From positions 416,001 to 480,000 of the forward strand of contig CAXXDQ010000007.1 of assembly GCA_963664325.2 (NCBI GenBank): a DNA stretch of 64,000 nt, read 5' to 3'. Below, one piece after another: positions 50,285 through 64,000 of this stretch; within the stretch, counting starts at the first letter, position 1; each line of letters opens with the position of its first letter. The notes under the pieces were generated by a model. That model was not told the origin of the DNA and searched no databases. It saw only the letters and a list, made by a program, of their open reading frames with translations. A program made the translations under genes and the position numbers. Source of the DNA: Desulfomonilia bacterium. GTDB lineage: Bacteria > Desulfobacterota > Desulfomonilia > UBA1062.

Positions 50285-51835
50285 TTATTCAACCTTTCTG
50301 ATAATCAGCTTCTTCCCGAACACCTTGGAAAAGGCCTCCCTGTGATTCTGCGCGCCCCAGGTCTCGAGATCACAACCCCTGTCGCATCCGAGCTCGAGTA
50401 TAACCGCATTTTTTTCGCCCGTTTTAAACCGGGCATGATTAATCAGGCCGGCGTGGCTCCTGTCAAGGCTTTCCGCAATCCTTAACAAAATCGAGTGGAC
50501 CTTGACGGTATCAACGGACTTTTCATCAAGGCCCGCAGTCTCCGGTCCTTTCCTTCCCGGAAAGCCGCGCCTGTGGAAAAAGACATCGGCGGCCATAATT
50601 AAAATTTCCCTCTGGTTGAACCCCAGCAGGTCCGCATTCCTTATGAAATAGCTGCTGTTGGCATGATGGTTGCTGTATGAAAGGAACGCCCCTATATCAT
50701 GCAGGATGGCAGAGCAGTGAAGCAGTTCCCTCCTGCCGGAGCCCTGCCTGTGAAGCAATATCTCCCTGCCCGTATCAAACATCTCAAGGCAAAGGCGTGC
50801 GACTGTCATGGCGTGCTTTTCATCAAAGCCGCATCTCCTGCCAAGGCTCAATACGCTCCTCATCCTTATTGAGACCTCAGGCGCTTCCTGGCCGTATTCC
50901 CTGTCAAGATAGTCAATGAGCAGTCCATCCCTTAATTCACGGGTGCTTATCCTGAGTTCGGGTATCCCGGTTTCAGACATGATGGTTTCGAGGATTGCCG
51001 CTCCGGCAACTAATATGTCAGCCCTTTTAGGATTCATTCCGGGCACATTCCGTCTTTCCCTGAGAGGCAGAGAACATAGCAGTTTCGATACCTGCTTCAG
51101 GTCTTTCAGCCTGAGCAGCGATTTTCTGTCCTCATCACCCTTATAGATTACTTGTCTTGAGATCTCGGCAAGATTCTGCGCAGTACCGGAACTCCCCAGG
51201 GCTTCTTTCACACCTGATGCCCTGATTGCCTGCACAGGCCTGATGGACGTACTTTTTACATGCTCGCAGATCATGGCATATTGTTTCGGCGGGATAGGCC
51301 CCTCGATGCCATCGGTATATTTCATGGAAAGCCTTATTGCCCCGAGTTTCATGCTGTCCAGAAAGATGTATCCGTTATTGTCACCGACAATGACTTCCGT
51401 ACTTCCGCCGCCTATATCTATGAATAGAGTCCGCTCGATTATCTTATCACCGCGCGAAACGCCCAGGTATATCAGCCTTGCCTCTTCCTTCCCCGAGACC
51501 ACATTCATTTCAATACCGGCCTCGTATTTAAGAAGATCAAGAAATTCTTTCTGGTTTGAAGCATCCCTGGTTGCCGAAGTAGCCACGGCAACAATCTCTG
51601 CGGCACCAAAGGTATGAGCCATGCTGACAAAGTTCCTGCATACGGCGACTGCCCTTTGAATGGCCTCGGGTTTTATCCTGTTATCGTCGAACTGCCCTTC
51701 CCCAAGCCTTATCATCTCTTTCTGGCGGGAGAGTTCGGTATAAGACCTTTCACTTTCAAACCGGGCTATCATCAGGCGCACCGAGTTGGTGCCCATGTCC
51801 ATGAACGCGACTACCTTTGGTTTATCGGGTTTCAT
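50285..51835 (-). CDS. ppx: Ppx/GppA exopolyphosphatase with HD domain
   Basis: DMGTNSVRL, ATSATRDA, EEARLI, DIGGGSTE, LHDIG. Confidence 0.92.
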   Translation of the reverse strand: MKPDKPKVVAFMDMGTNSVRLMIARFESERSYTELSRQKEMIRLGEGQFDDNRIKPEAIQRAVAVCRNFVSMAHTFGAAEIVAVATSATRDASNQKEFLDLLKYEAGIEMNVVSGKEEARLIYLGVSRGDKIIERTLFIDIGGGSTEVIVGDNNGYIFLDSMKLGAIRLSMKYTDGIEGPIPPKQYAMICEHVKSTSIRPVQAIRASGVKEALGSSGTAQNLAEISRQVIYKGDEDRKSLLRLKDLKQVSKLLCSLPLRERRNVPGMNPKRADILVAGAAILETIMSETGIPELRISTRELRDGLLIDYLDREYGQEAPEVSIRMRSVLSLGRRCGFDEKHAMTVARLCLEMFDTGREILLHRQGSGRRELLHCSAILHDIGAFLSYSNHHANSSYFIRNADLLGFNQREILIMAADVFFHRRGFPGRKGPETAGLDEKSVDTVKVHSILLRIAESLDRSHAGLINHARFKTGEKNAVILELGCDRGCDLETWGAQNHREAFSKVFGKKLIIRKVE

Positions 51836-53149
51836 CTGAATATGATTTCCCGGCTGAAAACCTTTTTCATAAGGTCCGACTTTAAAAGGCCGTATTCGAG
51901 TTCGGTTTCAGAAGGCCGCAAAGTCTTGCATATTATCGTAATGTTATCAGGTGATACATCGCATATAAGACTTGAAACGGCATTCGAATGCGATCTGTCC
52001 AGGCCGTCTGCCACCCTTAATATGGCGGAAAGCTTGTCCACCCTTTGCCTGTCGGTTTCCGTCAGTGACGAATAAGGGGCCTGATCCTTCTCCGGCAGCG
52101 CCTTCCTGTGGTACCTTGCGACAAGCGCCGTGACAAGCCGTTCATTTTCCGTAAAAGACGGCAGGCTGCCTTTAAGTATCATTTCCATCGAGAGCTTGTG
52201 ATGCGCCCGGCCTCCCTCTGCAATGCCGATATCATGGAGGAGCGACGCACATTTCAGGATTGTCCTGTCGTGCGATGAAAGGCCGTGAAAGGCCTCAAGT
52301 TCGTCAAAAATCTGCTCGGAAAGCTTCATAACCTGTCTTGCATGCGCCTCCTCATAGCAGCTGGCCACTGCAAGGCTCTCAGCCTGGTTCTCGAGTTCAC
52401 TTCCCCTTGAATCCTCCTGGTCCTTAATCGATGTGTAGTTCCTGGCCTCAAGCAGCATCTTCGAGAATACATCGGGCAGCCCACTGCCGATAACAGCGCC
52501 GGCAGCGGCCCGGACATCATAATCGACCCTGTAATGATGCACCTTGACATCCTTCTTGGAGTTTATCTCAAGGATGGCGAATGAAGCCCTCGTGTCACCG
52601 TCATCAGGAAGACCTGTCGAGCCGGGATTGATAAAAACGGCATTGCCCGCCTTCCTCACAAAAGGCCTGTGTGAATGCCCGCAGATTATTATGTCACAAT
52701 CCGACTTCGAGGCAATCTCGGCAAACCTTTCGGTCGGCGTATCGGGTCCCAGATGCTCCCTGTCAGACTCCGGGCTTGCATGAACCAGAAGTATTTTTCT
52801 CCCTTCAATTTCAAGGACCCTTTTCATTGGAAGGTTTTTTACATATTTCCTGTTCGATGAGGAAAGGGCTTCATATGAAAATTTCAGCATGATGAACTTA
52901 TCCGGGTCTTTTTCATGCTGCCAGGCGGAAGCTTTTTTCGGGAATTTCATAATCCTTGTATCGAAATTGCCGGTTATGCCGAGCACCTTTTTTTTTCTGA
53001 GAATGCTAACGACCTCGTCAGGAAAAGCCCGAACCCCAGCATGTCCCCAAGGTCCCATACACACTCGGCCCGTGTTTTTTTGCCTGATTCAGTACTGTCT
53101 TCAGCGCATGCATGTTAGAGTGTATGTCGCCAATTAGCGCTATTTTCAC
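51832..53149 (-). CDS. YfcE-like metallophosphoesterase fused to HD domain (5' frameshifts in G runs)
   Basis: GTG start at 53149 reads MKIALIGDIHSN; LGD in a shifted frame; GNFD, GHSH, NPGS; HD domain LHDIG. Confidence 0.8.
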
Positions 53150-54175
53150 TTAAACCTGCTCTTCGTTTGAATTTTGTTCAGCTGCATCACCTGAATTCAG
53201 AAAATCCGAGAGTGTCTGCCACACTGGAAGCAATTCTTCCCATACCTTTATAAATTCATCATACCTTTTCTTTCTGAATTCCGCCCTGTCCTTTTCAAGG
53301 CACGCAATCCCGGTTTTCAAACGCGGGATAATGCGTACATTTCCGCTGTATTCAATGGCTCTTCCTGCTTCGTCTTCGAGAAAAACCGGCAGAAAGTGCG
53401 CCCATACATCACAGTCGTGTATATCGCCAAGTATTTCCTGAATTGCCTTTGCCGCCTTGATCGGTTTTCTGAGCCTTGTCCTGAAAAGCGGCTCGAAGCT
53501 TTCCATCGCGTATCTGAGATGCTTTGCGGCAATACGCATCTGATGAAGTTCAACACTGCGAGAAGGCTCTCTGATATACATTTCATAACCGAAAAGTTCC
53601 CCCAGAAGCGCCTTTATTTCCCTTGAAGCAAGCATGAACGCATAACGGCCGGGCTTTGCCGGTTTGTCAAAGGCCATTGTGCCGAGTATGGTCCGGAACA
53701 GTTCCTGCATCTCCGTGAATATCCGGCCGTCCTCCATGCGCGTGACAGCTTTGGTTACAGCCGACTGAAGGCCTTCCCTCCTCTGGGTCAATCTGAGCAG
53801 CAGCCTTCTGATGCCTTCCTTCTGTCTCCTTGTTTCAAGGGAGTCCATAAATTCCCTTATATGGATTATCTGGACATCGGCATCCCGGGCCTCGCCCAGG
53901 GCCCGAGTCAGCGAACGCACCCTTTTTCTGTACATCGAGGCCTTTGCATCAGGCAGACATTCTGCGAAAAGCTTCAGGCGGGTCCTCAATCTCCGGGAGG
54001 CAACCCTCATCCTGTGAAGGAACTCAGCGTCTTCCGCAATCTTTACGCCTTCGGCCTCCCGCATTATGGCCTGGAGCTGTGCCGTTAGCGCCTCTATGCT
54101 GAATTTTACAAACATCCTGTCAGGAGTCGCTGTATCGGCTACTTGTTCCATGAACCCCTGTTCTCCAGCAGCCAC
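53150..54175 (-). CDS. CHAD domain (polyphosphate-binding) protein
   Basis: LHRMRVASRRLR, LGEARDADV, LHQMRIAAKHLRY, LGDIHDCDV. Confidence 0.9.
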   Translation of the reverse strand: MAAGEQGFMEQVADTATPDRMFVKFSIEALTAQLQAIMREAEGVKIAEDAEFLHRMRVASRRLRTRLKLFAECLPDAKASMYRKRVRSLTRALGEARDADVQIIHIREFMDSLETRRQKEGIRRLLLRLTQRREGLQSAVTKAVTRMEDGRIFTEMQELFRTILGTMAFDKPAKPGRYAFMLASREIKALLGELFGYEMYIREPSRSVELHQMRIAAKHLRYAMESFEPLFRTRLRKPIKAAKAIQEILGDIHDCDVWAHFLPVFLEDEAGRAIEYSGNVRIIPRLKTGIACLEKDRAEFRKKRYDEFIKVWEELLPVWQTLSDFLNSGDAAEQNSNEEQV

Positions 54176-56316
54176 TGCTGCGAATCGATCTCATCCTGTC
54201 CCTCGGCATGCACTATCCTGGAATATGTTCCGTCAGGCAGCAATAGCCTTGATTTGACATTATCATCCAGATGAACTTTCAGTATTCTTTCATAAATAGT
54301 CTTTTTGATCTTTTCATAGAGTATCGGGAACAGGACCTCGATCCGTCTGTCAAGATTTCTCGGCATCATGTCCGCGCTTCCCAGGAACATCTCGTCCTTG
54401 CCCCCGTTCCTGAAATAGAAAATCCGTGCATGTTCAAGAAACCGTCCCACTATGGATGTAACCCTGATGTTCTCGCTTACCCCGGGAATACCCGGTCTTA
54501 GGCAGCATATGCCGCGTATCTGGAGGTCGATTTTCACCCCGGCCTGAGATGCCCGGTAAAGCGCCTGGATAATCTTCTTGTCGACGAGAGAGTTCATTTT
54601 GAATGCAATGTAGCCGTCAGCCTTTTTCCGGTGTCTTTCTATTTCGCGATCAATACGCAAAAGAACTTCCTTCCTCATCCGTCCAGGCGCCACAAGCAGG
54701 CTTGTAAAATCGCTCTTCGCGGAATAGCCCGTGAGAGAATTGAACAGGTCGGTTACATCTTCGCCTATGGCAGGATTGCAGGTAAAAAGCCCGATGTCCG
54801 TATAAATGCGGCTGGTGATCGTGTTGTAGTTGCCGGTGCTCATGTGGACATAGCGTACTATTCCATTTTTCTCGCGGCGCACCACGAGGCAGAGCTTTGC
54901 ATGCACCTTCATGCCGATGAGGCCGTAGACCACATGCACACCCTCTTTTTCAAGCGCACGCGCCCAGTGTATGTTGGTTTCCTCATCAAAGCGCGCCTTC
55001 AGTTCAACCAGTGCGGCCACCTGCTTGCCTTCGATTCTCGCATCCATGAGGGCGTCGTAAATCGGCGAATTGACGCCTGTCCTGTAAAGAGTGAGTTTTA
55101 TTGCCAGTACATCAGGATCTTTTGACGCCTGCCTTATAAAATCGACAACCGGCGTAAAGCTCTCATAGGGGTGGTACAGGATGATATCGCGGTTCCTTAT
55201 TTTACTGAAGATATCGCCGCTGCCTGAAAAAACCTTCGGCACGGAAGGTATGTATCCAGTATCCTTAAGGTCCGGCCTGTTGATCTTTGCAAGCTGCATA
55301 AGGTCGGTCGTACCCATCAGGGATTTCGTTACAAAAACCAGATAAGGCTCCACTTTTAAATTTCTCATGAGGATATCTCTGATTCTTGCAGGCATGGTTT
55401 CATTCACTTCAAGCTTAACCGCAATACCGAAATGCCTCAAATCAAGACCTTCCTCGACCGTTGTCAGGAGGTCGGAGGCCTCGTCGTCCTCTATTTCTAT
55501 ATCGGCGTCCCTTGTAATCCTGAACGGATATGAGGCGTCCACCTTCAATCCCGGAAAAAGCGTGTCCAGATTAGCGGCAACAACTTCTTCCAGAGGGACA
55601 AAGCAGTATCTTCCCTGCTTTGCCAGAGGCTCAAACTCTGTCTTGTCGTCACTTTTTTCTGGAATTCCAATGAACCTCGGGAATATATCGGGCATCTTCA
55701 GCCATGCAAACCTGTCGCCTTTCTTCGAGTCGTTTATCATAACGGCCAGATTGAGGCTCAGACTCGAAATATGCGGAAACGGATGCGAGGGGTCAAAGGC
55801 CAGCGGCGTTAAAACAGGGAATATCTCCTTTCTGAAATACTCCCTCAAATAATCTTTATCCTCCTTCTTCAGCGACTGGTAGGAAAGCACGCTGATTCCG
55901 GCCTCTTTCAGTTTCGGCCTGAGGTCCTCCTCCCAGCATTTATCCCTGGTTTCCAGAAGGGGCTGCAGCATCTTCCTGATTTCCTGAAGCTGTTCGCCAG
56001 GGAGCATGCCGTCTATAGAACGCTCCTGGGAACCCGACGCAAGCTGATCCCGCAGGCCTGAAACCCGTATCATGAAAAACTCGTCCAGGTTGCTCCCGAA
56101 TATCGAGAGAAACTTGACCCGCTCCAGAAGCGGCTGGGACTGGTCCAGAGCCTCCTCCAGCACTCTGGAATTGAACTGAAGCCAGCTCAGTTCCCGGTTG
56201 ATGTAAAGCCCGGGATCATTGAGAGAATCCATGCCTGTCTTTGCAGAGACCTTTTCCGGAGCCTTTTTACCTGCTATACGCTTTTTCACATCTTTTGGTT
56301 TCTTTTCTTTCTTCAT
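54139..56316 (-). CDS. ppk1: Polyphosphate kinase 1
   Basis: NRELSWL, NLDEFFM, HPYESF, ELKARFDE, KVHAK, RFLEH, SADMM.RN. Confidence 0.97.
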   Translation of the reverse strand: MKKEKKPKDVKKRIAGKKAPEKVSAKTGMDSLNDPGLYINRELSWLQFNSRVLEEALDQSQPLLERVKFLSIFGSNLDEFFMIRVSGLRDQLASGSQERSIDGMLPGEQLQEIRKMLQPLLETRDKCWEEDLRPKLKEAGISVLSYQSLKKEDKDYLREYFRKEIFPVLTPLAFDPSHPFPHISSLSLNLAVMINDSKKGDRFAWLKMPDIFPRFIGIPEKSDDKTEFEPLAKQGRYCFVPLEEVVAANLDTLFPGLKVDASYPFRITRDADIEIEDDEASDLLTTVEEGLDLRHFGIAVKLEVNETMPARIRDILMRNLKVEPYLVFVTKSLMGTTDLMQLAKINRPDLKDTGYIPSVPKVFSGSGDIFSKIRNRDIILYHPYESFTPVVDFIRQASKDPDVLAIKLTLYRTGVNSPIYDALMDARIEGKQVAALVELKARFDEETNIHWARALEKEGVHVVYGLIGMKVHAKLCLVVRREKNGIVRYVHMSTGNYNTITSRIYTDIGLFTCNPAIGEDVTDLFNSLTGYSAKSDFTSLLVAPGRMRKEVLLRIDREIERHRKKADGYIAFKMNSLVDKKIIQALYRASQAGVKIDLQIRGICCLRPGIPGVSENIRVTSIVGRFLEHARIFYFRNGGKDEMFLGSADMMPRNLDRRIEVLFPILYEKIKKTIYERILKVHLDDNVKSRLLLPDGTYSRIVHAEGQDEIDSQQWLLENRGSWNK

Positions 56317-56447: not shown

Positions 56448-56810
56448 TTATCTGGCAAATATCATTTTCAGTGATATCGCAAACAAAGCTATCCCGAATA
56501 TTTTTTCCAACAGCGTTTCCGGCAGGGTTACAGCCAGCTTTGCTCCTAAAAGACTGCCAATGAAGAAACCAAGGCAGATAATAAATGCAATTTTTATATC
56601 GACATAACCCTGTTTGTAATATGCCCATGCGCCCAGAATACCTATGGGCGGAATTAATAAGGCCAATGTCGTACCCTGAGCCATATGCTGTGAAAAACCA
56701 AAAAGAAATATCAGGGCAGGAACAATTATGACTCCTCCGCCTATGCCTATCAGGCCGCTCAAGCTCCCTGAAACCAGACCCAAGCCAAGAAAAAGCAGGA
56801 TTCTGACCAT
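56448..56810 (-). CDS. Sulfite exporter TauE/SafE family protein (half-size)
   Basis: SGLIGIGGGVIIVPAL, AQGTTL. Confidence 0.85.
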   Translation of the reverse strand: MVRILLFLGLGLVSGSLSGLIGIGGGVIIVPALIFLFGFSQHMAQGTTLALLIPPIGILGAWAYYKQGYVDIKIAFIICLGFFIGSLLGAKLAVTLPETLLEKIFGIALFAISLKMIFAR

Positions 56811-56877
56811 TATCTCCTCCTAATTTGTCGGCCGCATAATTCAGCCCGGTATCATATTCCCTAATTATTGATATTCG

Positions 56878-57822
56878 TCAGGCAAATGTGAACCTTGTCC
56901 CTGACATGCTCAGGATGAATGCCGGCAGTTCCTTCTCCATGGCCATCATGGCGGTCCTGCCGGTGCAGTGGCACGGGATGATATGTTCGGGTGCAATCTG
57001 CTTCAGTTCATTGATCGTGGGTGTGACGACGGCATCCATGTTCGCTCCTCCCAGGTGGAAGCCGCCTATTACGGCGTGGACCTTTTCGATTCCGGTCACT
57101 TTGCGCGCATGTCTGATCGTGTTGATAACGCCTGCATGGGCACAGCCCGTAAGAATTACGAGACCCTTGCCTCTCAATGAAAAGACAAGTGAAGAATCAT
57201 CGATGATGTCATCCTTGTGTTCGCCCGAACCGTCGGCATAAGTCGCAAAAGGCATGCCCTGCTCGAACGCGGTCTGTCTGGGAACCTCTCCCAGAAACAG
57301 GGAGTATCCGCCTATCATTTCAACAGGTTTTTCCGAGAGAATCATCTCAAGCCCCATTACGGAAAGACTCTCTTTCTTTAATTCAGGGAATCTCAGTTTG
57401 AAGTCTTCTGTGAATTTCAGATAGCGGTTGCTGTCAAGAGCAAAGGGATGCAGAAAAATTTTCAGAGGCTTTCCGATTTTTTCAGTAATTTTTTCGATGC
57501 CCCCTGTATGGTCCATATGGCCGTGTGAGAGTGCAAGTTCTTCTATCTTCGACGTGTCAACTCCAAGCGCATCCATATTATGAACCACGCCTTCCGGTGA
57601 ATACCCGAAATCAAAAAGGAGCGTGTGTTCGGTGACACCGTCAGTCGTTTTCACAAGGGCCGAAAACCCGTGTTCCGCAATGACGGAATTCTTTATGTAA
57701 CCATCCTTAACTGGATTGGCCCTGGCTGCAACCGGGCTTGCCGGAGCTTCAACAAGGTCTATATAGTTGTCCTGGAGAACGAGTATCTCAATCTTTTCAG
57801 ATTCTTTTATCTTCATTTGCAA
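56878..57822 (-). CDS. MBL-fold metallo-hydrolase
   Basis: AEHGFS, SHGHMDHTGG, GCAHAG, GGFHL, PCHCTG. Confidence 0.88.
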   Translation of the reverse strand: MQMKIKESEKIEILVLQDNYIDLVEAPASPVAARANPVKDGYIKNSVIAEHGFSALVKTTDGVTEHTLLFDFGYSPEGVVHNMDALGVDTSKIEELALSHGHMDHTGGIEKITEKIGKPLKIFLHPFALDSNRYLKFTEDFKLRFPELKKESLSVMGLEMILSEKPVEMIGGYSLFLGEVPRQTAFEQGMPFATYADGSGEHKDDIIDDSSLVFSLRGKGLVILTGCAHAGVINTIRHARKVTGIEKVHAVIGGFHLGGANMDAVVTPTINELKQIAPEHIIPCHCTGRTAMMAMEKELPAFILSMSGTRFTFA

Positions 57823-57830
57823 TCTCCCCT

Positions 57831-58310
57831 TTATTTATTAAACGCTTCGATAACGGCATCCGGAACCCTGACCGCAACAACTTCACCCCGTGCGCACTCG
57901 ACTCCGCCAGAAGAAAGAATGGTAGTTATTATAACCTTTTTGGGCTTTATCTCTTTTGCGCTTGATCTGAGTTCAAGAGGCACCCCCATCGGCGTCGGGC
58001 TCTTGAAATCGACATGAAGCGCAGCGGTCAGAAACCTTATTTCCGGCTTGCTTCCGATCTCCCTGCCTTCGGCACGCGCTGCATAGGCGGCCGCCGAACC
58101 CGTGCTGTGGCAGTCAATAATCGATGCTATGAGACCGCCGTACACCATTCCCGGGATCGCCATGTATTTCCCGTCAGGAATAAAGGTGCAGACCGTTTCG
58201 TCTCCGTCCCAGAAGCTTTTTATCTGCAAACCTTCGCTGTTCAATCTTCCGCAGCCATAGCAATGGCTGAAGTTGTCCGGATAACAATCCTGAAAGGCCT
58301 TATTGTTCAT
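57831..58310 (-). CDS. PaaI / hotdog-fold thioesterase
   Basis: HCYGCG..N..GL, YGGLIASIIDCH, PTP. Confidence 0.85.
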   Translation of the reverse strand: MNNKAFQDCYPDNFSHCYGCGRLNSEGLQIKSFWDGDETVCTFIPDGKYMAIPGMVYGGLIASIIDCHSTGSAAAYAARAEGREIGSKPEIRFLTAALHVDFKSPTPMGVPLELRSSAKEIKPKKVIITTILSSGGVECARGEVVAVRVPDAVIEAFNK

Positions 58311-58662
58311 GGCAGCCGTGCTCATGGAGTTCACATGCGACTCCCGAATCCGTCAGGTTTCCTGAAAGCCAGGCCAGCATCACTTCTTTTACATCGCCGG
58401 AACAGCCCCTCACAACATCGATCCCGACGCTGTTGAGCACATTGACCGCACCCTGGCCCATAATGCCGGCAAGCATCAGGGTAACTCCCATCTGTTTGAG
58501 CGTACCGGCTATGTTGGACCTGCAGCCGCAGCCCGCCTGGGAACTGACAATTTCCAGCGCAGCGATTGATCTTTTCTCGTCAACCGTAAAAACCGTAAAA
58601 TACTCGCAATGTCCGAAATGTTCATCTATCCTGTTCTGTCTCGATGGTAACGCTATTTTCAT
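58300..58662 (-). CDS. NifB/NifX family Fe-Mo cluster-binding protein
   Basis: MKIALP, HFGHCEYF, GCGC, MGQGA. Confidence 0.85.
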   Translation of the reverse strand: MKIALPSRQNRIDEHFGHCEYFTVFTVDEKRSIAALEIVSSQAGCGCRSNIAGTLKQMGVTLMLAGIMGQGAVNVLNSVGIDVVRGCSGDVKEVMLAWLSGNLTDSGVACELHEHGCHEQ

Positions 58663-58672
58663 TTTTTTCTCC

Positions 58673-59074
58673 TTAAACTTTTCTTATATTTTTTCTGCAG
58701 TAGGGACATCTTCCCGCGTTATTCATCCCCTCGCAGAGAACTGTCGCCCTTTTGCAGTTTTCGCAAGGATTCATGCCGGGCTTGACGATAAAGATATCAC
58801 CCCCGCTTATTCTGAGGGCCTTTCCGTTCACAATAAAATCTGCGATCTTCTGCTGGGCTGATTCGATTATCCTGCCGAATGTCGGACGTGATATGTTCAT
58901 CATAGCCGCTGCCTGTTCCTGGTACATGCCCTCGTAGTGCGCAAGCCTTACGGCCTCGAATTCATCCAGGCTCAGATGAACTTCCCCGCAGGAAGAAGCC
59001 TTCACTCCTTCCGGCTTAAAGCATGTATTCTCCGGCATCAGGCCTATGTTTCTGCAGCACTTGGGTCTGGGCAA
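58673..59074 (-). CDS. DUF134 family HTH protein
   Basis: MPRPKCCR, FKP, DEFEAVRL, QEQAAAMMNISRPTFGRI; C-terminal CxxC...CPYC. Confidence 0.9.
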   Translation of the reverse strand: MPRPKCCRNIGLMPENTCFKPEGVKASSCGEVHLSLDEFEAVRLAHYEGMYQEQAAAMMNISRPTFGRIIESAQQKIADFIVNGKALRISGGDIFIVKPGMNPCENCKRATVLCEGMNNAGRCPYCRKNIRKV

Positions 59075-59198: not shown

Positions 59199-60728
59199 TT
59201 ATTTTTCTGTCTTTAACCTCAATGAACGTTCGAATCCGGGCAGCCGTGACTCATTGACAAAAAGTCTGTACGGCCTTCTGATCTTCCACCCCTTCATAAC
59301 AGGATCATACATGCCTATTTTTCTGCCAGAAAAAATAAGTTTCGGATATTTATTATTCTTCCGTTCAAATACTGCCAGTTCTATCCTTTTAACCTTTGGC
59401 AGCAGTTTTATGAAAATTCCTGAACGCGACAGGCCATGATAAACGCAGTGGAGCAGCCTTGATATAAAACGCATGACAGGCCTGCGCACCTTTACCAGAT
59501 GCATCTCCGCAACACCCAATAAACCTCCATAAATCCTGCGCATCCGGCCATCTCTATGTGATTCGCAAACCCGGCCGATAACATTAATCCTGTCAATTGT
59601 ATATGGGTCGGGATTGGCATTACTATCTCCCTTTGTCCGGATCTTGGAGTCTTTTACTTCAATAATTCTGTGGACTATCGTATCTTCCCTGGTTTCAGTC
59701 TTGTAGCATATTACATCGCCTTTTTTTATCCTTGAGCCGGCATCATAAGGAATAACAGTCATCATTTCAGGTTCGATAAATGTAGGATTCATGCTTACGC
59801 CGCGATAGACGAAATACAAACAGTTTCCATTTTTCCTTTTTTGAACATAATCATTTTCAGACAGCCTGACGTTCACTTCTTCAATCTCTCTCCTTTGAAG
59901 GATAACAGATTTAAGGGTCTTTTCCATCTCCTTCCAGAATTCACCGGTAAGGCTGATATGAAGCTGGAAGGCAGGGACAGATTGGGACAGTACATTCGCT
60001 CTTTTAATAAAGTTTTTAACAAGCCCTTGTTTTTCCCTAGCAGTAAACATATTCGAGCGTGTGACATGTTCGACAGTATCAATGATCATGGCCTTCGCAT
60101 GCGCCTTGTCAACCGGTATTGCAAAGTCATTAGGTGACTGCACCAGGAAAAATATCACATTAAGCTGAATTCCATCCTCAACTTTCCAGCTCCCGCCTGG
60201 CCCCTTCGTATAAAACCTGCTCCATGTAGGCCAGGGATGGGCTCTGAAGCCACCATTGCCATCAGGTATAATTATCGTCGCGTCGTCGCAGTAAGAAATC
60301 CAGGGTCCGGGCAGCCTCATGCTGGCTGTGGATTTGCCGATAGTCCCCGGACCGGCCATAATTGCGCCTGCTCCATCATGCGAACACAATGCACCGTGAA
60401 TGAGCATTCCGCCCTTATTCGTAGCATCGATAACAACAGCCTGGGCAATCCTTTCCACCTGGATATTGAACATCTCTCTGTTTTCGGCCGGATTGAGTAT
60501 GCAAAGGATCGGCTCTTCGTCGTTTTCAGGTATAACGAGCTTTTTTTCACCTCTTTCATGTTCCTTTACACAGACCAGAATTTTTCTGCCCTGTTCTTCT
60601 ACTTTCTCAAGCTGCATGATTTCCGCAAGCTTTTGAACAAACGTTTCCGCTTTTTTATCGGTTGGGATGATTGAATATCCAATTGATTCCGTCAGTTTCA
60701 TTACGGGATTCTTATTGATAGTATTCAT
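59199..60728 (-). CDS. scmC: SynChlorMet ScmC-like HPr-kinase-related protein fused to an S26/S24 peptidase domain
   Basis: IHGAL, GPGTIGKST, CDD, HPWPTWS; then GVSMNPT, VHRI, TKGDSN. Confidence 0.78.
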   Translation of the reverse strand: MNTINKNPVMKLTESIGYSIIPTDKKAETFVQKLAEIMQLEKVEEQGRKILVCVKEHERGEKKLVIPENDEEPILCILNPAENREMFNIQVERIAQAVVIDATNKGGMLIHGALCSHDGAGAIMAGPGTIGKSTASMRLPGPWISYCDDATIIIPDGNGGFRAHPWPTWSRFYTKGPGGSWKVEDGIQLNVIFFLVQSPNDFAIPVDKAHAKAMIIDTVEHVTRSNMFTAREKQGLVKNFIKRANVLSQSVPAFQLHISLTGEFWKEMEKTLKSVILQRREIEEVNVRLSENDYVQKRKNGNCLYFVYRGVSMNPTFIEPEMMTVIPYDAGSRIKKGDVICYKTETREDTIVHRIIEVKDSKIRTKGDSNANPDPYTIDRINVIGRVCESHRDGRMRRIYGGLLGVAEMHLVKVRRPVMRFISRLLHCVYHGLSRSGIFIKLLPKVKRIELAVFERKNNKYPKLIFSGRKIGMYDPVMKGWKIRRPYRLFVNESRLPGFERSLRLKTEK

Positions 60729-60742
60729 GGCGAAGTGATTTT

Positions 60743-61909
60743 CTAATTTAGCTGCTTCTTTTTTCTCGACGCAGCGAACCTTCCTGATTCATTCGCCTCA
60801 AGGCACATGGTATGCGGCCATAGGAGTCTGCCGAAGTTCGAGTAGTTCTGCACAACACAGCCTGTCCTGCATTTGCGCATGAATATGCAGTTGCGGCACA
60901 GTTCCGGATAATTCGCGAAATCCATTAGATCATTTCTGAGTCTCACGACCGCCGGATGGTTGAGCCATATGTTCCTGATCGAATCTTCTCCGAGCTTGCC
61001 GTAAACAAGTTCGGGCATGGTCCTGCCTATTCCGCACAGAGCAATAGCCCCTGAGCCAAGGATGCCGAGTATATGGTCAACCCCGCAATCGCCTGCATTG
61101 GTATTTGAAACAAGCTCTTTAATCGGTCTTAAAGAAAGCGGAATGTTAATTATAACAGGTATGCGGGAAATCTTTTTCAGAGAGCCCCTCACAAAATCAG
61201 ACAGCTCAATTATTTCCTTAAGTGCAAGTGTCTCGTTCCTCTCGTGCATGAGGATGCCTCGGCCGTTGTTTGTCACAGGATTCAACTTTACCGAACCCGC
61301 GCCCTTCGACGCCGCCATCTTGACGAGCTCTTCAACCTCGCCGACATTGCCCCTATGAGGGGACATGATTATCTGCACGTTCTTGTAGCCGGCATCGACA
61401 AGGCACCTTAGACCGTTCAGAGCCGTCTTGTAAGCGCCTTTGACGCCTCTGAACCTGTCATGGGATTCCTCATGTATGCTGTCCAGACTTATTGATATGA
61501 AGCTGATCTTCGTCTCTTCCCTTAGAAACCTCGCCTTTTCTTCATCGAGGAGCGTGCCATTGGTTTCCATATTCAGGCTCAATCCCTCTTCGGAGAGCAT
61601 TCTGGCTATTTCCCTGAACCTCGGATGTATCATCGGTTCGCCACCGGTAAGCTTGGCGTTGGTCAGACCGAGCGGCTTCGCCTCATTCACTGCCTGTCTT
61701 AAAAGCTCTATGTCAATGACCTCGCCGGGAGACGGCTTCCCGTTTACGAAAGAAGGCGTTATCCAGCAGTGCCTGCACTTCAGATTACAGCTGTCAGACA
61801 TGTAGAGGTAAAACGCTCTCAGAACCGGGACGCCTTCAGGCAGATCGGGATTTCTCTTATTGTCACTATCAACCATATCGCTGCTTAAGCAAAGATCGGT
61901 CATTCTCAA
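60743..61909 (-). CDS. scmF: Radical SAM/SPASM protein, ScmF-like
   Basis: CNLKCRHCWI, LTGGEP, ETNG; SPASM-type CRNCIFMRKCRTGC. Confidence 0.82.
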   Translation of the reverse strand: MRMTDLCLSSDMVDSDNKRNPDLPEGVPVLRAFYLYMSDSCNLKCRHCWITPSFVNGKPSPGEVIDIELLRQAVNEAKPLGLTNAKLTGGEPMIHPRFREIARMLSEEGLSLNMETNGTLLDEEKARFLREETKISFISISLDSIHEESHDRFRGVKGAYKTALNGLRCLVDAGYKNVQIIMSPHRGNVGEVEELVKMAASKGAGSVKLNPVTNNGRGILMHERNETLALKEIIELSDFVRGSLKKISRIPVIINIPLSLRPIKELVSNTNAGDCGVDHILGILGSGAIALCGIGRTMPELVYGKLGEDSIRNIWLNHPAVVRLRNDLMDFANYPELCRNCIFMRKCRTGCVVQNYSNFGRLLWPHTMCLEANESGRFAASRKKKQLN

Positions 61910-63012
61910 ACCTCTTGAAGATATTTTTTATAGCAGACAAGCGGATCAATGGAGTTCAACATACCGGTCTTTGACATGACTGTTCCGGGACATCCGCCGG
62001 TGCAGAATCCTGCATACAGACAGCCCCGGCATTCTTCGGCCTCGGTTATTGGAATTTTGCGTCGCTCCCTCACAATATTTATGTTCGGGTGAGCCTGCCA
62101 GACCTCTTTGAGCGAAACCTCTCCCATTTTTCCCATGACCAGGGTGGGCAGCATGTTGCACGGCACATATGTTCCGTCGTGCAGAACCGCCATCTTGTTG
62201 AACACTCCCCCACAGGAGCAGAATGTTCCTCTGCCTTTCATCGAGGTTTCACCTCTTTCAAGCCTCTCACTGATTTCCCTCATCATCCTGGCCCTTGTCA
62301 GCGGCCCGGCCTGTGCGCTTATACGACCGCCGTATCTTTCATCGATCGAGACAAGCGTAACCATTGCCTTCTTTCTTTCTTCTATACTCAGTATGATATC
62401 CTGGCCGTTGCAGCGGGCGCTTCCCATATAGTCGGCCTCGTTCGTGCTGAATCCGGACAGACCCACGTCATCTATGAGCAGCTCGGCAATGTTTTCAAGG
62501 TCATTTACATTATGGCGGTTTATGGTAACCCTCACGGTGACGGGAAAACCATGTTTTTTCAGTAGTCTGAGTGCGCCTATCGCCTTTTCGAAACTCCGGG
62601 GAGGCCTGCTCTTGTCATGGATGTCCGGTCTTGAACCGTCGACTGAAATCTGGATGGAATCGAGCCTCTGCCTGCGTTTTCCTTTAAAGAATTCGCTTAT
62701 GGTTTTCTCGTCAATGAGCGTGCCGTTGGAAAGTATTTTGTATCTCATCTTGTTGTCTATGACACTGTCGATGATTTCGAAAAGGTCTTTTCTTATGAAC
62801 ACTTCGCCCCCGCTCAGGCAGACCTTCTGAACCCCCAGACCACCCGCTTCACTGAAAAATGCAAGCCAGTCCCCGGTAGGAAGATCATCCGCCTTTTCCA
62901 TGCTCTCTGCATAAAAGCAGTAGCGGCATTTAAGGGTGCATTTTCCTGTAAGTCCTATGTCGAGTTCAAGTGGGGCGGATGATATTCCGGGATAACCTTC
63001 AGGAGATTTCAT
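61906..63012 (-). CDS. scmE: Radical SAM/SPASM protein, ScmE-like
   Basis: CTLKCRYC, SGGE, SNGTL; SCGG, PC, CRGCLYAGFCTGGC. Confidence 0.85.
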   Translation of the reverse strand: MKSPEGYPGISSAPLELDIGLTGKCTLKCRYCFYAESMEKADDLPTGDWLAFFSEAGGLGVQKVCLSGGEVFIRKDLFEIIDSVIDNKMRYKILSNGTLIDEKTISEFFKGKRRQRLDSIQISVDGSRPDIHDKSRPPRSFEKAIGALRLLKKHGFPVTVRVTINRHNVNDLENIAELLIDDVGLSGFSTNEADYMGSARCNGQDIILSIEERKKAMVTLVSIDERYGGRISAQAGPLTRARMMREISERLERGETSMKGRGTFCSCGGVFNKMAVLHDGTYVPCNMLPTLVMGKMGEVSLKEVWQAHPNINIVRERRKIPITEAEECRGCLYAGFCTGGCPGTVMSKTGMLNSIDPLVCYKKYLQEV

Positions 63013-63277
63013 TTATAAAATTTACTCCCAGCATTTTTATGAAGTTTTCCGCATCATTTTTTGCGCTTTCAAAGTCTATACCGCTGAAGCTCTCGACAAG
63101 GAAGGCGGCTATTTCATCCAGAGTCCTCGGCTTTTCTATGAAAACCCATATTAGCCCGCCCGTTACATTCATTATCGTGCTTAAATCCATGTCAGGGTTA
63201 TATAGAACCGCGCCTTCATGGTCTTCATCTCTGAACGAGACATCCGGGTTCGACTGATATCTTATTCCATTCGCCAT
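62999..63277 (-). CDS. scmD: PqqD / RiPP recognition element (ScmD-like)
   Basis: NPDVSFRDE..GAVLYNPD....MNVTG.LIW; 92 aa; directly upstream of the radical SAM genes. Confidence 0.85.
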   Translation of the reverse strand: MANGIRYQSNPDVSFRDEDHEGAVLYNPDMDLSTIMNVTGGLIWVFIEKPRTLDEIAAFLVESFSGIDFESAKNDAENFIKMLGVNFINEIS

Positions 63278-63368
63278 TTTTCACCTTGATTTATATAATT
63301 TTGCTCGATTGATGTTTTCTTTAAAACGTTTACCCGGTGCAATAAATTCAGTTTCAACATAAAACTAG

Positions 63369-63398
63369 AAGCCGGAGACATTCAAAAATCTCCGGCTT
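63369..63398 (-). terminator. Hairpin between the precursor gene and the maturase genes
   Basis: AAGCCGGAGA-N10-TCTCCGGCTT, followed by CTAGTTTT on the minus strand. Confidence 0.6.
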
Positions 63399-63416
63399 AT
63401 GGAATAAACTGGCTTA

Positions 63417-63677
63417 TTAAAAACCATTACCTTCAGAAACACAAGCAGTACTTGCTGAGTTTCCTGAAGAAAAACAGTCATGCATATCGGTTCCTGGTGA
63501 ATTGCCATCACCAGTACATGACAGGGTTGCAAAATTACCAGTCATGCAGGGGGAGTCTGCATTTGATCCCGGTGTAGTACAGTCTCCGATAGAATTCGAG
63601 GTTCCATCAAGCTTTATCGCTTTCGGCGCTTCGTATACGTGTTTAGAAACGGTACCGGATTTGTTTTCTTTAGCCAT
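63417..63677 (-). CDS. Putative RiPP precursor peptide with a five-Cys repeat core
   Basis: AGGAG RBS; leader YEAPKAIKL (YxxPxL-like); core has five C-x2-3-G-[NS] repeats. Confidence 0.75.
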   Translation of the reverse strand: MAKENKSGTVSKHVYEAPKAIKLDGTSNSIGDCTTPGSNADSPCMTGNFATLSCTGDGNSPGTDMHDCFSSGNSASTACVSEGNGF

Positions 63678-63775
63678 CACCATCTCCTAATATATTATCA
63701 TCCGTCATGAGCAAGATAATATTTAACACTTAATCTAAAGACGGGAAAAGTCAACCGTCATATGTTACATTGTCG

Positions 63776-64000
63776 TCAATATATTACCCTGCAGCCGGAG
63801 AAACCGTTCGAGTTGAGCCTGTCCGCAAGTTCAAAGACATCACAGCCGATGTCCCCGGGTACACCCGTAAAAGCCTCTTTTATAAGCTCTACTATCCGGC
63901 CAACGTCTTTAGCGCCGTCGCTGCATTCCTTCTTAACTTGCCCGTGGAGTTGACGGGCACAAAATTTCCGGTATCCATATTGACCCGCACGGCCCAGCCG
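63776..64000 (-). CDS. Second PqqD-family protein (5' end outside the window; apparent frameshift near 63935)
   Basis: Frame-joined GWAVRVNMDTGNFVPVNSTG...DGAKDVGRIVELIKEAFTGVP..IGCDVFELADRLNSNGF. Confidence 0.6.
   Translation of the reverse strand, partial: RLGRAGQYGYRKFCARQLHGQVKKECSDGAKDVGRIVELIKEAFTGVPGDIGCDVFELADRLNSNGFSGCRVIY

Follow-up and report, generated by a model that had tools for sequence, protein, structure and literature searches.

What could two dissimilar radical S-adenosylmethionine (SAM) enzymes make of one small peptide with a repeated Cys motif? The question is raised by a gene cassette that begins at position 59199 of a 64,000-nucleotide stretch of DNA from a Desulfomonilia bacterium (GenBank assembly GCA_963664325.2, contig CAXXDQ010000007.1), hereafter the window, and runs to its end; the window is G000:C7:416001-480000, G000 being the genome under study and C7 its contig 7. 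Read 5′ to 3′ on the minus strand, the cassette comprises a precursor gene, a hairpin, a PqqD-type gene (PqqD-C), ScmE-like and ScmF-like radical SAM/SPASM genes and a fusion of ScmC with an S26 peptidase domain. We are close to certain that the locus is a pathway for a peptide that is ribosomally synthesized, then post-translationally modified (a RiPP). As to the course of that pathway, we lean with modest confidence towards thioether stapling of the Cys repeats guided by RiPP recognition elements (RREs), together with a second reaction by ScmE, phosphorylation and leader cleavage by the S26 domain. The analysis covered gene anatomy, conservation and co-occurrence, from which the reactions and the product are predicted.

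Relationship to the SynChlorMet cassette

By the profile models that its genes match, the locus is a divergent SynChlorMet-type cassette. The ScmE-like enzyme (61906-63012, minus strand, 368 aa) matches TIGR04250 over its full length with 391.7 bits, a near miss of the cut-off of 400, the next family scoring 124.7, and the ScmF-like enzyme (60743-61909, minus strand, 388 aa, start possibly at ATG 61903) matches TIGR04251 over its full length with 313.6 bits (cut-off 400, next family 108.9); the lead of the Scm model is thus about 200 bits or larger in either case. The HprK-like ScmC part of the fusion (59199-60728, minus strand, 509 aa; ScmC part, residues 1-275) scores 153.7 bits on TIGR04249 and passes the cut-off of 125, while the other four of the five models, ScmE, ScmF, ScmD and ScmA, stay below theirs. 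A PqqD-like gene, two radical SAM/SPASM genes and ScmC are clustered on one strand, a grouping that is repeated in related loci. The gene set and the logic of its order are like those of the SynChlorMet models (TIGR04248 ScmD, TIGR04249 ScmC, TIGR04250 ScmE, TIGR04251 ScmF and TIGR04252 ScmA); unlike them, the present system has precursors that miss ScmA, two RRE paralogues, a ScmC-S26 fusion, a duplicated and decayed array and five precursor genes elsewhere in the genome. In the closest loci (L011, L012 and L034, with ScmE 83-86% identical) the order is PqqD-A, one precursor, PqqD-C, ScmE, ScmF and ScmC-S26.

The original prediction, made from the sequence of the window, had proposed a one-strand SynChlorMet-type cassette with an identifiable precursor, and most of it stands. 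The Scm models are the best matches by wide margins, even if a search with them puts only ScmC above its cut-off and ScmD, ScmE and ScmF below. The precursor, the hairpin, PqqD-C, both radical SAM/SPASM genes and the kinase-like/peptidase fusion, with intact catalytic motifs in both domains, are as described, but the first PqqD gene of the list is a pseudogene with a frameshift and a stop at codon 4. The pathway had been called complete: genes for recognition, radical chemistry, phosphorylation and proteolysis are there, and the exporter is missing. As expected, the cluster runs on past the window, for about 1.1 kb that hold an intact precursor, a broken precursor and an intact PqqD-A. The statement that the product is uncharacterized agrees with the literature searched, mostly outside subscription papers, in which no product was found. 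Nor did that literature, outside which lay the Haft TIGRFAM papers and supplements, contain a paper on the SynChlorMet/Scm cassette; supplements to genome-mining studies of RiPPs might include such clusters. As an arrangement of genes the locus is unsurprising, and its architecture has been catalogued.

The precursor family

The precursor within the window, precursor 2 (63417-63683, minus strand), encodes 86 aa from ATG 63677, the likely start by ribosome-binding-site spacing (AGGAG, 6 nt upstream). It has a YxxPxxxxL leader and a core of five C-x2/3-G-[S/N] units that ends in G-N-G-F. NCBIfam gave no match for either cassette precursor, and Pfam none for precursor 2. The thought that such a cassette has a precursor is not new, since a precursor model for it, ScmA (TIGR04252, cut-off 35 bits), is already in NCBIfam; the present peptide misses it. 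One dispersed precursor scored 12.7 bits on ScmA. A search of the G000 genome with the model gave no match, and across 401 genomes of the phylum no match exceeded the cut-off. It matched one of 77 representatives of the precursor family, with 22.9 bits. The two best sub-cut-off ScmA matches (L044 and L045, in other genomes) score 29.5 and 42.6 bits on our precursor profile, which suggests a loose link between ScmA and this family. Standard models miss the Scm precursors, so that pipelines would under-report the cassette.

Our profile was built from 18 peptides. At E <= 1e-10 it retrieved the 77 cluster representatives; at E <= 0.001 the number rose to 1,667, which does not measure the family, since false positives are among them (P0006, a repeat protein of 816 aa, is one). 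Judged by these matches, the precursor is a member of a large unnamed family tied to ScmE. The ESM Atlas returned unnamed clusters only, with recognition below the mark. Core statistics were taken from the best 150 profile matches, 147 of which (<=130 aa) were kept and 3 dropped. An aromatic-x-x-Pro leader motif is found in 146 of the 147, and successive Cys residues are 10 or 11 residues apart in 527 of 596 intervals. Gly stands at +3 or +4 of the Cys in 732 of 738 cases, and in 113 of 113 among 26 non-seed peptides from Scm loci. The rule holds after the last Cys as well (146/147 and 26/26 peptides), which points to a unit running from the Cys downstream. Five is the commonest number of Cys (79 of 147 peptides), and an odd count argues against simple disulfide pairing. 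A motif-neutral control gave the same picture: small Cys-bearing open reading frames (ORFs) with YxxP were CxxG-rich in 34 of 60 cases at 80 Scm loci, against 0 of 8 at 25 other radical SAM loci. Similar peptides do flank other Scm cassettes, with a precursor match at 29 of the 43 loci that have a full ScmF, 11 of them seed loci of the profile. A beta-solenoid core, considered as a possible fold, found no support, the predicted precursor fold being of low confidence (pLDDT, or predicted local distance difference test, 60.5; predicted template-modeling score, pTM, 0.22).

Two dissimilar radical SAM enzymes

The ScmE-like and ScmF-like enzymes are 24% identical and conserve different polar residues, which makes two reactions likely. 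Their CxxxCxxC motifs start at residues 25 and 41, and neither enzyme has an N-terminal RRE, as fits recognition by stand-alone RREs. Conservation was assessed in full-length, stop-free homologues. In ScmF, C275, C292, C338, C341, C347, C351 and C369 are invariant in 43/43, and no other 12-residue window has a Cys in more than 23 of the 43, that is, there is no eighth Cys; in ScmE the seven SPASM Cys are invariant in 63/63. The seven of ScmE align with those of the thioether-forming CteB, and ScmF shows the same seven-Cys spacing. In PapB and Tte1186 this pattern, with three ligands on the first auxiliary cluster, is described as binding the substrate Cys at the open iron (PMC10177961).

ScmE carries in addition a Cys (C201) in the loop 193-204, present in 63/63 homologues with a register that shifts between clades; among 280 windows scanned, only those overlapping this loop reach 63. 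The loop has a pLDDT below 50 in a model whose mean is 89.1. Its conserved Cys suggests a chemistry unlike that of ScmF, possibly an epimerase's: it may be a fourth cluster ligand or a hydrogen donor, the latter being the part assigned to Cys223 in the epimerase EpeE (PMC13012085). The extra Cys amounts to a sharp prediction by which the two enzymes' roles can be told apart, and a repeat peptide on which two unlike radical SAM enzymes would act is a reasonable place for new chemistry. Relatives of ScmE are labeled Chloroflexota, Thermodesulfobacteriota, Bacteroidota, Verrucomicrobiota and others, and the Scm cassette is widespread; the ScmE tree was a quick one, used only for two major clades.

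Kinase-peptidase fusion and RREs

Behind the ScmC part of the fusion lies an archaeal-type signal-peptidase-like S26 part (residues ~300-390; TIGR02228, 60.6 bits, cut-off 51.85), followed by a conserved basic C-terminal tail. H111, G131-K132, D148-D149, S312, H353, D368 and D374 are invariant in 9/9 aligned fused homologues. The His, the P-loop Lys and the Asp-Asp pair we take to be kinase motifs, as in HprK-type kinases, and the S26 domain, as aligned, keeps a Ser-His-Asp catalytic set (Ser312, His353, Asp374); it also gives a weak match to human SEC11 (E 0.004). ScmC and S26 share one frame at 11 of the 16 loci with both domains, in one of the 11 in reverse order.

PqqD-C (62999-63277, minus strand, 92 aa), which overlaps the start of ScmE, matches PF05402 with 34.9 bits (cut-off 23.4) and ScmD TIGR04248 with 21.7 bits (cut-off 100). 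Its paralogue PqqD-A (G000:C7:480796-481083, minus strand, beyond the window), an intact RRE gene, reaches 54.4 bits on ScmD and has orthologues 78-80% identical in L011, L012 and L034; for both, ScmD is the best NCBIfam match. In PqqD-C, N37 and D75 are invariant in 18/18, and the best solved relative of its alignment is LppB (9x8z, E 1.3e-5). A predicted PqqD-C/leader complex scored 0.52 against 0.28 for the best control, with at least 92% contact agreement between runs and a partner pLDDT of at least 56. This supports binding weakly: 116 of 157 solved pairs attain the mark, as do 2 of 215 mismatched ones, but at <=0.60 just 18 of the 157 and both mismatches do so. Solved look-alikes exist.

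LppB belongs to the system for linear polyphosphorylated peptides (LPP; LppA, K, B, S, D, N; PMC13381572), whose trio of SpI-like peptidase, RRE and HprK-like kinase is present in our cassette. As described there, RRE residues N33 and D70 bind a YxxP leader, the HprK-like kinase transfers phosphate to a Ser of the core, and a SipW-like protease with a Ser-His-Asp triad is an RRE-dependent leader peptidase (PMC13381572). The corresponding residues are invariant in our proteins, and the likeness extends to the YxxP leader, a stand-alone RRE with Asn and Asp, the kinase and the archaeal-type signal-peptidase-like protease. The two systems differ in that the LPP core set, in the main text of PMC13381572, has no radical SAM enzyme and brings its own exporter and nucleotidyltransferase, whereas the present cassette joins kinase and peptidase in one protein and its precursors have a core of repeated Cys units. 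Of the LPP leader consensus YxxPxVLxHQxIxFETxxS only YxxP is shared, and neither the NTP transferase nor the MsbA-like exporter is in the cassette.

Proposed pathway and alternatives

Very probably, the stand-alone RREs would begin the pathway by binding the YxxPxxxxL leader. One or both of the radical SAM enzymes, with ScmF as the likeliest, would then link each core Cys thiol to a nearby downstream carbon in the same C-x2/3-G-[S/N] unit, a step that we consider reasonably probable; with the alpha-carbon of Gly or of Ser/Asn, or the beta-carbon of Asn/Ser, as acceptor, a chain of small thioether rings would form at -2 Da each, and the first auxiliary cluster of ScmF should keep an open iron. 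ScmE likely performs a different reaction, for which it would use its loop Cys as fourth cluster ligand or, as an epimerase, as hydrogen donor. By analogy with LPP (PMC13381572), phosphorylation of core Ser/Thr by ScmC is fairly plausible, and removal of the leader by the fused S26 domain with the help of an RRE is highly plausible, the cut falling probably just before G-x-C at the start of the core. Export, which the cassette does not encode, may be borrowed.

A more specific version, in which ScmF staples the C-x2/3-G-[S/N] units with thioethers and ScmE epimerizes the same repeats with its mobile loop Cys as hydrogen donor, is a long shot; together with the kinase-peptidase it would amount to an undescribed RiPP class with poly-thioether rings, D-residues and phosphate, produced as a small library from the seven precursor genes that are scattered over the genome. 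The nearest precedents for stapling are the ranthipeptide/sactipeptide maturases CteB, PapB and Tte1186, which have the seven-Cys SPASM pattern in common with our enzymes (PMC10177961), the NxxcA maturase, and CrpC, which acts on the Cys-repeat CrpA (PMC10177961, PMC8326336, PMC13692751). In the systems described in these sources, too, repeated Cys motifs stand near a polar residue and one substrate receives multiple cross-links, as proposed here. The present case is set apart by about 20% identity, by an acceptor that is not fixed as in CX3D, by an RRE that is separate and not fused, and by two dissimilar enzymes.

Several observations weigh against the pathway as proposed. Both peptide sets, the 147 and the 26, were selected with a profile built on such peptides, and 14 of the 43 loci with a full ScmF have no precursor match, many of these being short contigs. 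The residue after the Gly varies (Ser 279, Asn 222 and others 236, of 737). The distance from Cys to Gly alternates between 3 and 4 while in 80% of cases the spacing from the Gly to the Cys that follows is fixed at 7, so the acceptor could lie upstream. A conserved Ser position as kinase target was not found in the peptide family, whose last residues are diverse. Fold searches left SuiB, SkfB and anSME tied (Z 26.7, 26.5 and 25.9; root-mean-square deviation 3.4, 2.7 and 3.8; 331, 276 and 322 residues aligned). SuiB forms a C-C cross-link, SkfB a thioether, and anSME oxidizes a thiol, so that the chemistry cannot be picked from the fold. The best identities in the PDB are about 20%, with no solved or characterized close relative.

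The excision of a small redox cofactor from the peptide, as for pyrroloquinoline quinone (PQQ) or mycofactocin, would agree with PqqE as the second-best solved relative by sequence of both enzymes, with the PqqD-type RREs and with a cassette that has no exporter. It is nevertheless extremely improbable: the cores are long and repetitive, their repeat number varies and paralogues differ widely, whereas cofactor precursors carry a fixed motif, and 12 of 80 Scm loci have exporter-like genes beside them. Hardly more credible is a decaying cassette that yields no product in the source strain. Two pseudogenes in the array, the lack of an exporter in the cassette and a truncated dispersed precursor in the genome G002 would speak for decay, but all four core genes are intact with their invariant residues kept, and what has died are surplus duplicates, which L011, L012 and L034 do not have. 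Moreover, the proportion of non-synonymous differences (pN) lies below that of synonymous ones (pS) in 10/10 precursor pairs, in leader and core alike, precursor 2 against its paralogue and a relative included, although these are rough values from short genes.

The two remaining alternatives concern the chemistry of an active pathway. We think it doubtful, if worth bearing in mind, that the Cys are oxidized in place to thiooxazoles, each losing 4 Da and keeping its thiol, to give a metal-binding peptide; the two enzymes might share the work in two steps. SbtM, a SPASM enzyme found in Geobacter and anaerobes related to it, does this (PMC9204691); the Cys of our cores are regularly spaced with small neighbors, and a Znu transporter and a Fur-family regulator lie upstream. 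SbtM acts on a Gly-Cys motif, however, according to PMC9204691, and in our peptides the residue before Cys is unconstrained, with Gly in 9-13%; the SbtM model (TIGR04082) gives ScmE 65.3 of the 350 bits it demands, and none of the eight precursor copies in G000 has an in-frame TGA at a Cys position. A Znu-type neighbor is found in the three closest relatives and was not noticed at other loci, for which no profile search was made. It is likewise unlikely, and a shade more so, that the radical enzymes act on residues other than Cys, with Ser, Asn, Ala or Gly epimerized or otherwise changed and the Cys free, in disulfides or metal-bound. The extra loop Cys of ScmE does recall the hydrogen-donor Cys223 of EpeE (PMC13012085), and Ala stands four residues before the next Cys in 57% of cases; set against this are the dominance of odd Cys counts, the open-site pattern of ScmF with no spare Cys, and the larger structural distance of EpeE (Z 18.6 vs 26.7). 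SbtM and EpeE (PMC9204691, PMC13012085), SPASM/twitch enzymes that act on Cys or use a spare Cys, are the models for these two chemistries; the present system differs from theirs in its precursors and in low model scores.

Dispersed precursor genes

G000 contains one ScmE, one ScmF and one ScmC, and eight matches to the precursor profile, three at the cassette (one broken) and five elsewhere, at C3:991408, C4:230174, C5:185890, C5:186301 and C7:899786, all five with ribosome-binding sites. On these matches, the intact genes that may encode substrates number seven; five are remote from the cluster, and the cassette machinery likely serves these five orphans too. Across 61 genomes, which are related and not independent, ScmE is present in 12, a precursor match in 11 and both in 10; one of the 49 genomes without ScmE, again kin, has a precursor. 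In G043, G055 and G058, ScmE, ScmF and precursors lie on different contigs, and the orphan truncated in G002 has already been mentioned. This pattern fits dispersed precursors that would be processed in trans, with turnover of copies. If so, the locus would be a compact, clonable set of two RREs, two enzymes, one kinase-peptidase and seven natural substrates.

Processing of the orphans by the cassette has its own counterevidence. In G034 a precursor is present, while neither ScmE nor ScmF gave a match. G000 has a further RiPP cluster (C3:856158-866508), with WxxP-leader precursors, that could in principle accept the orphans; its RRE also has the Asn and the Asp. A W/Y leader discrimination between the two G000 systems, of the kind in PMC13381572, is accordingly not supported by the RRE residues.

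Of the three radical SAM genes in this second RiPP-like cluster (L043), one bears a kinase-like tail; the cluster also has a PqqD, an S26-GNAT fusion, an ATP-binding cassette (ABC) exporter, an NTP_transf_5 nucleotidyltransferase and several Cys-bearing WxxP-leader precursors. No exporter or nucleotidyltransferase lies within the Scm cassette; the best G000 matches of those at L022 fall in the C3 cluster (39% and 22%). WxxP-family precursors are also dispersed, at C2:160028, C3:1033094, C5:181904 and C5:185575, the last convergent with the two Scm-type orphans on C5. Some orphans have neighbors of their own. Behind the C3 orphan stands a GNAT acetyltransferase gene (C3:991593-992252, L007), a pair found also in L031 (49% identity); the enzyme shares 30% identity with the GNAT portion of the S26-GNAT fusion, and an extra tailoring step is possible. 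A 1,581-aa ORF (C3:986077-990822) adjoining the same orphan has, by impression only, a defense or mobile-element look. Directly upstream of the two C5 orphans, on the same strand, is a group 1 glycosyltransferase gene (C5:186603-187799, L010).

A duplicated and partly dead array upstream

Upstream of precursor 2, all on the minus strand, lie PqqD-B (63776-64000 in the window, its 5′ end ~100 nt past the window end), the intact precursor 1 (G000:C7:480095-480346), a broken precursor (G000:C7:480393-480641) and PqqD-A. PqqD-B is split across two frames by a 1-nt deletion near 63920-63940 and has a stop at codon 4, just past the window end. Its 5′ part is a copy of PqqD-C, fused at the common NPD motif to a copy of PqqD-A (64% DNA identity to PqqD-A over 300 aligned bases). 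From this composition, PqqD-B is best read as a chimeric pseudogene left by local duplication, and we infer unequal crossover between the two PqqD paralogues. The broken precursor, 80% identical in DNA to precursor 1, has an in-frame TAA and its last Cys changed to Tyr, with a remnant of the PqqD-C start on its 3′ side; a second local duplication would explain it. Selenocysteine read-through was ruled out here, the stop being TAA at a Ser position.

Contigs from the runs X1 and X2 cover L001:8900-11300 (window 62900 onward) with zero differences from the assembly, and a piece from X4 covers the precursor stop and agrees with it. The three runs are of one sample, at depth 2 to 8.8 and possibly the source of the assembly, and confirm the lesions weakly. 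L049 has four precursors and a duplicated ScmF, and L046 two precursors and a partial second ScmF, showing that local duplication recurs in the family. At L023, two convergent PqqD-ScmE-ScmF sets lie within ~7.5 kb, with no precursor match.

Hairpin, promoter-like element and neighboring genes

The 11-bp hairpin 3′ of precursor 2 (63369-63398, minus strand) has a z of -3.42, and 0 of 200 shuffles fold as well. It was listed as terminator-like, a class of which the scan found 6 sites against 6.0 expected; promoter and terminator scans alike were near chance level. The stop of the precursor is 4 nt from the start of PqqD in L011 and L012 and overlaps it in L034, which leaves no room for the hairpin in these relatives. 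It is a real fold that lacks conservation in close relatives, with a possible role as terminator or transcript-stabilizing stem. About 70 nt upstream of precursor 2, a TTGACT element (63749-63754, minus strand) is invariant in 5/5 aligned upstream regions, two from G000 and three from relatives. The sigma-70 scan did not report it and no clear -10 box was seen there; from its conservation it is a possible -35 box of the precursor promoter. An Rfam search of 10.5 kb around the cluster gave no match.

Past PqqD-A, upstream of the cassette, stand the Znu-type ABC transporter and the Fur-family gene. On its 3′ side, the minus-strand genes at window 56448-59074 (a DUF134 regulator, a NifB/NifX-family protein, a thioesterase-like protein, a metallo-beta-lactamase-fold protein and a TauE/SafE exporter) are outside the cassette. 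Farther along, four minus-strand ORFs at window 50285-56316 resemble a polyphosphate operon, presumably encoding polyphosphate kinase, a CHAD protein, a phosphatase and an exopolyphosphatase.

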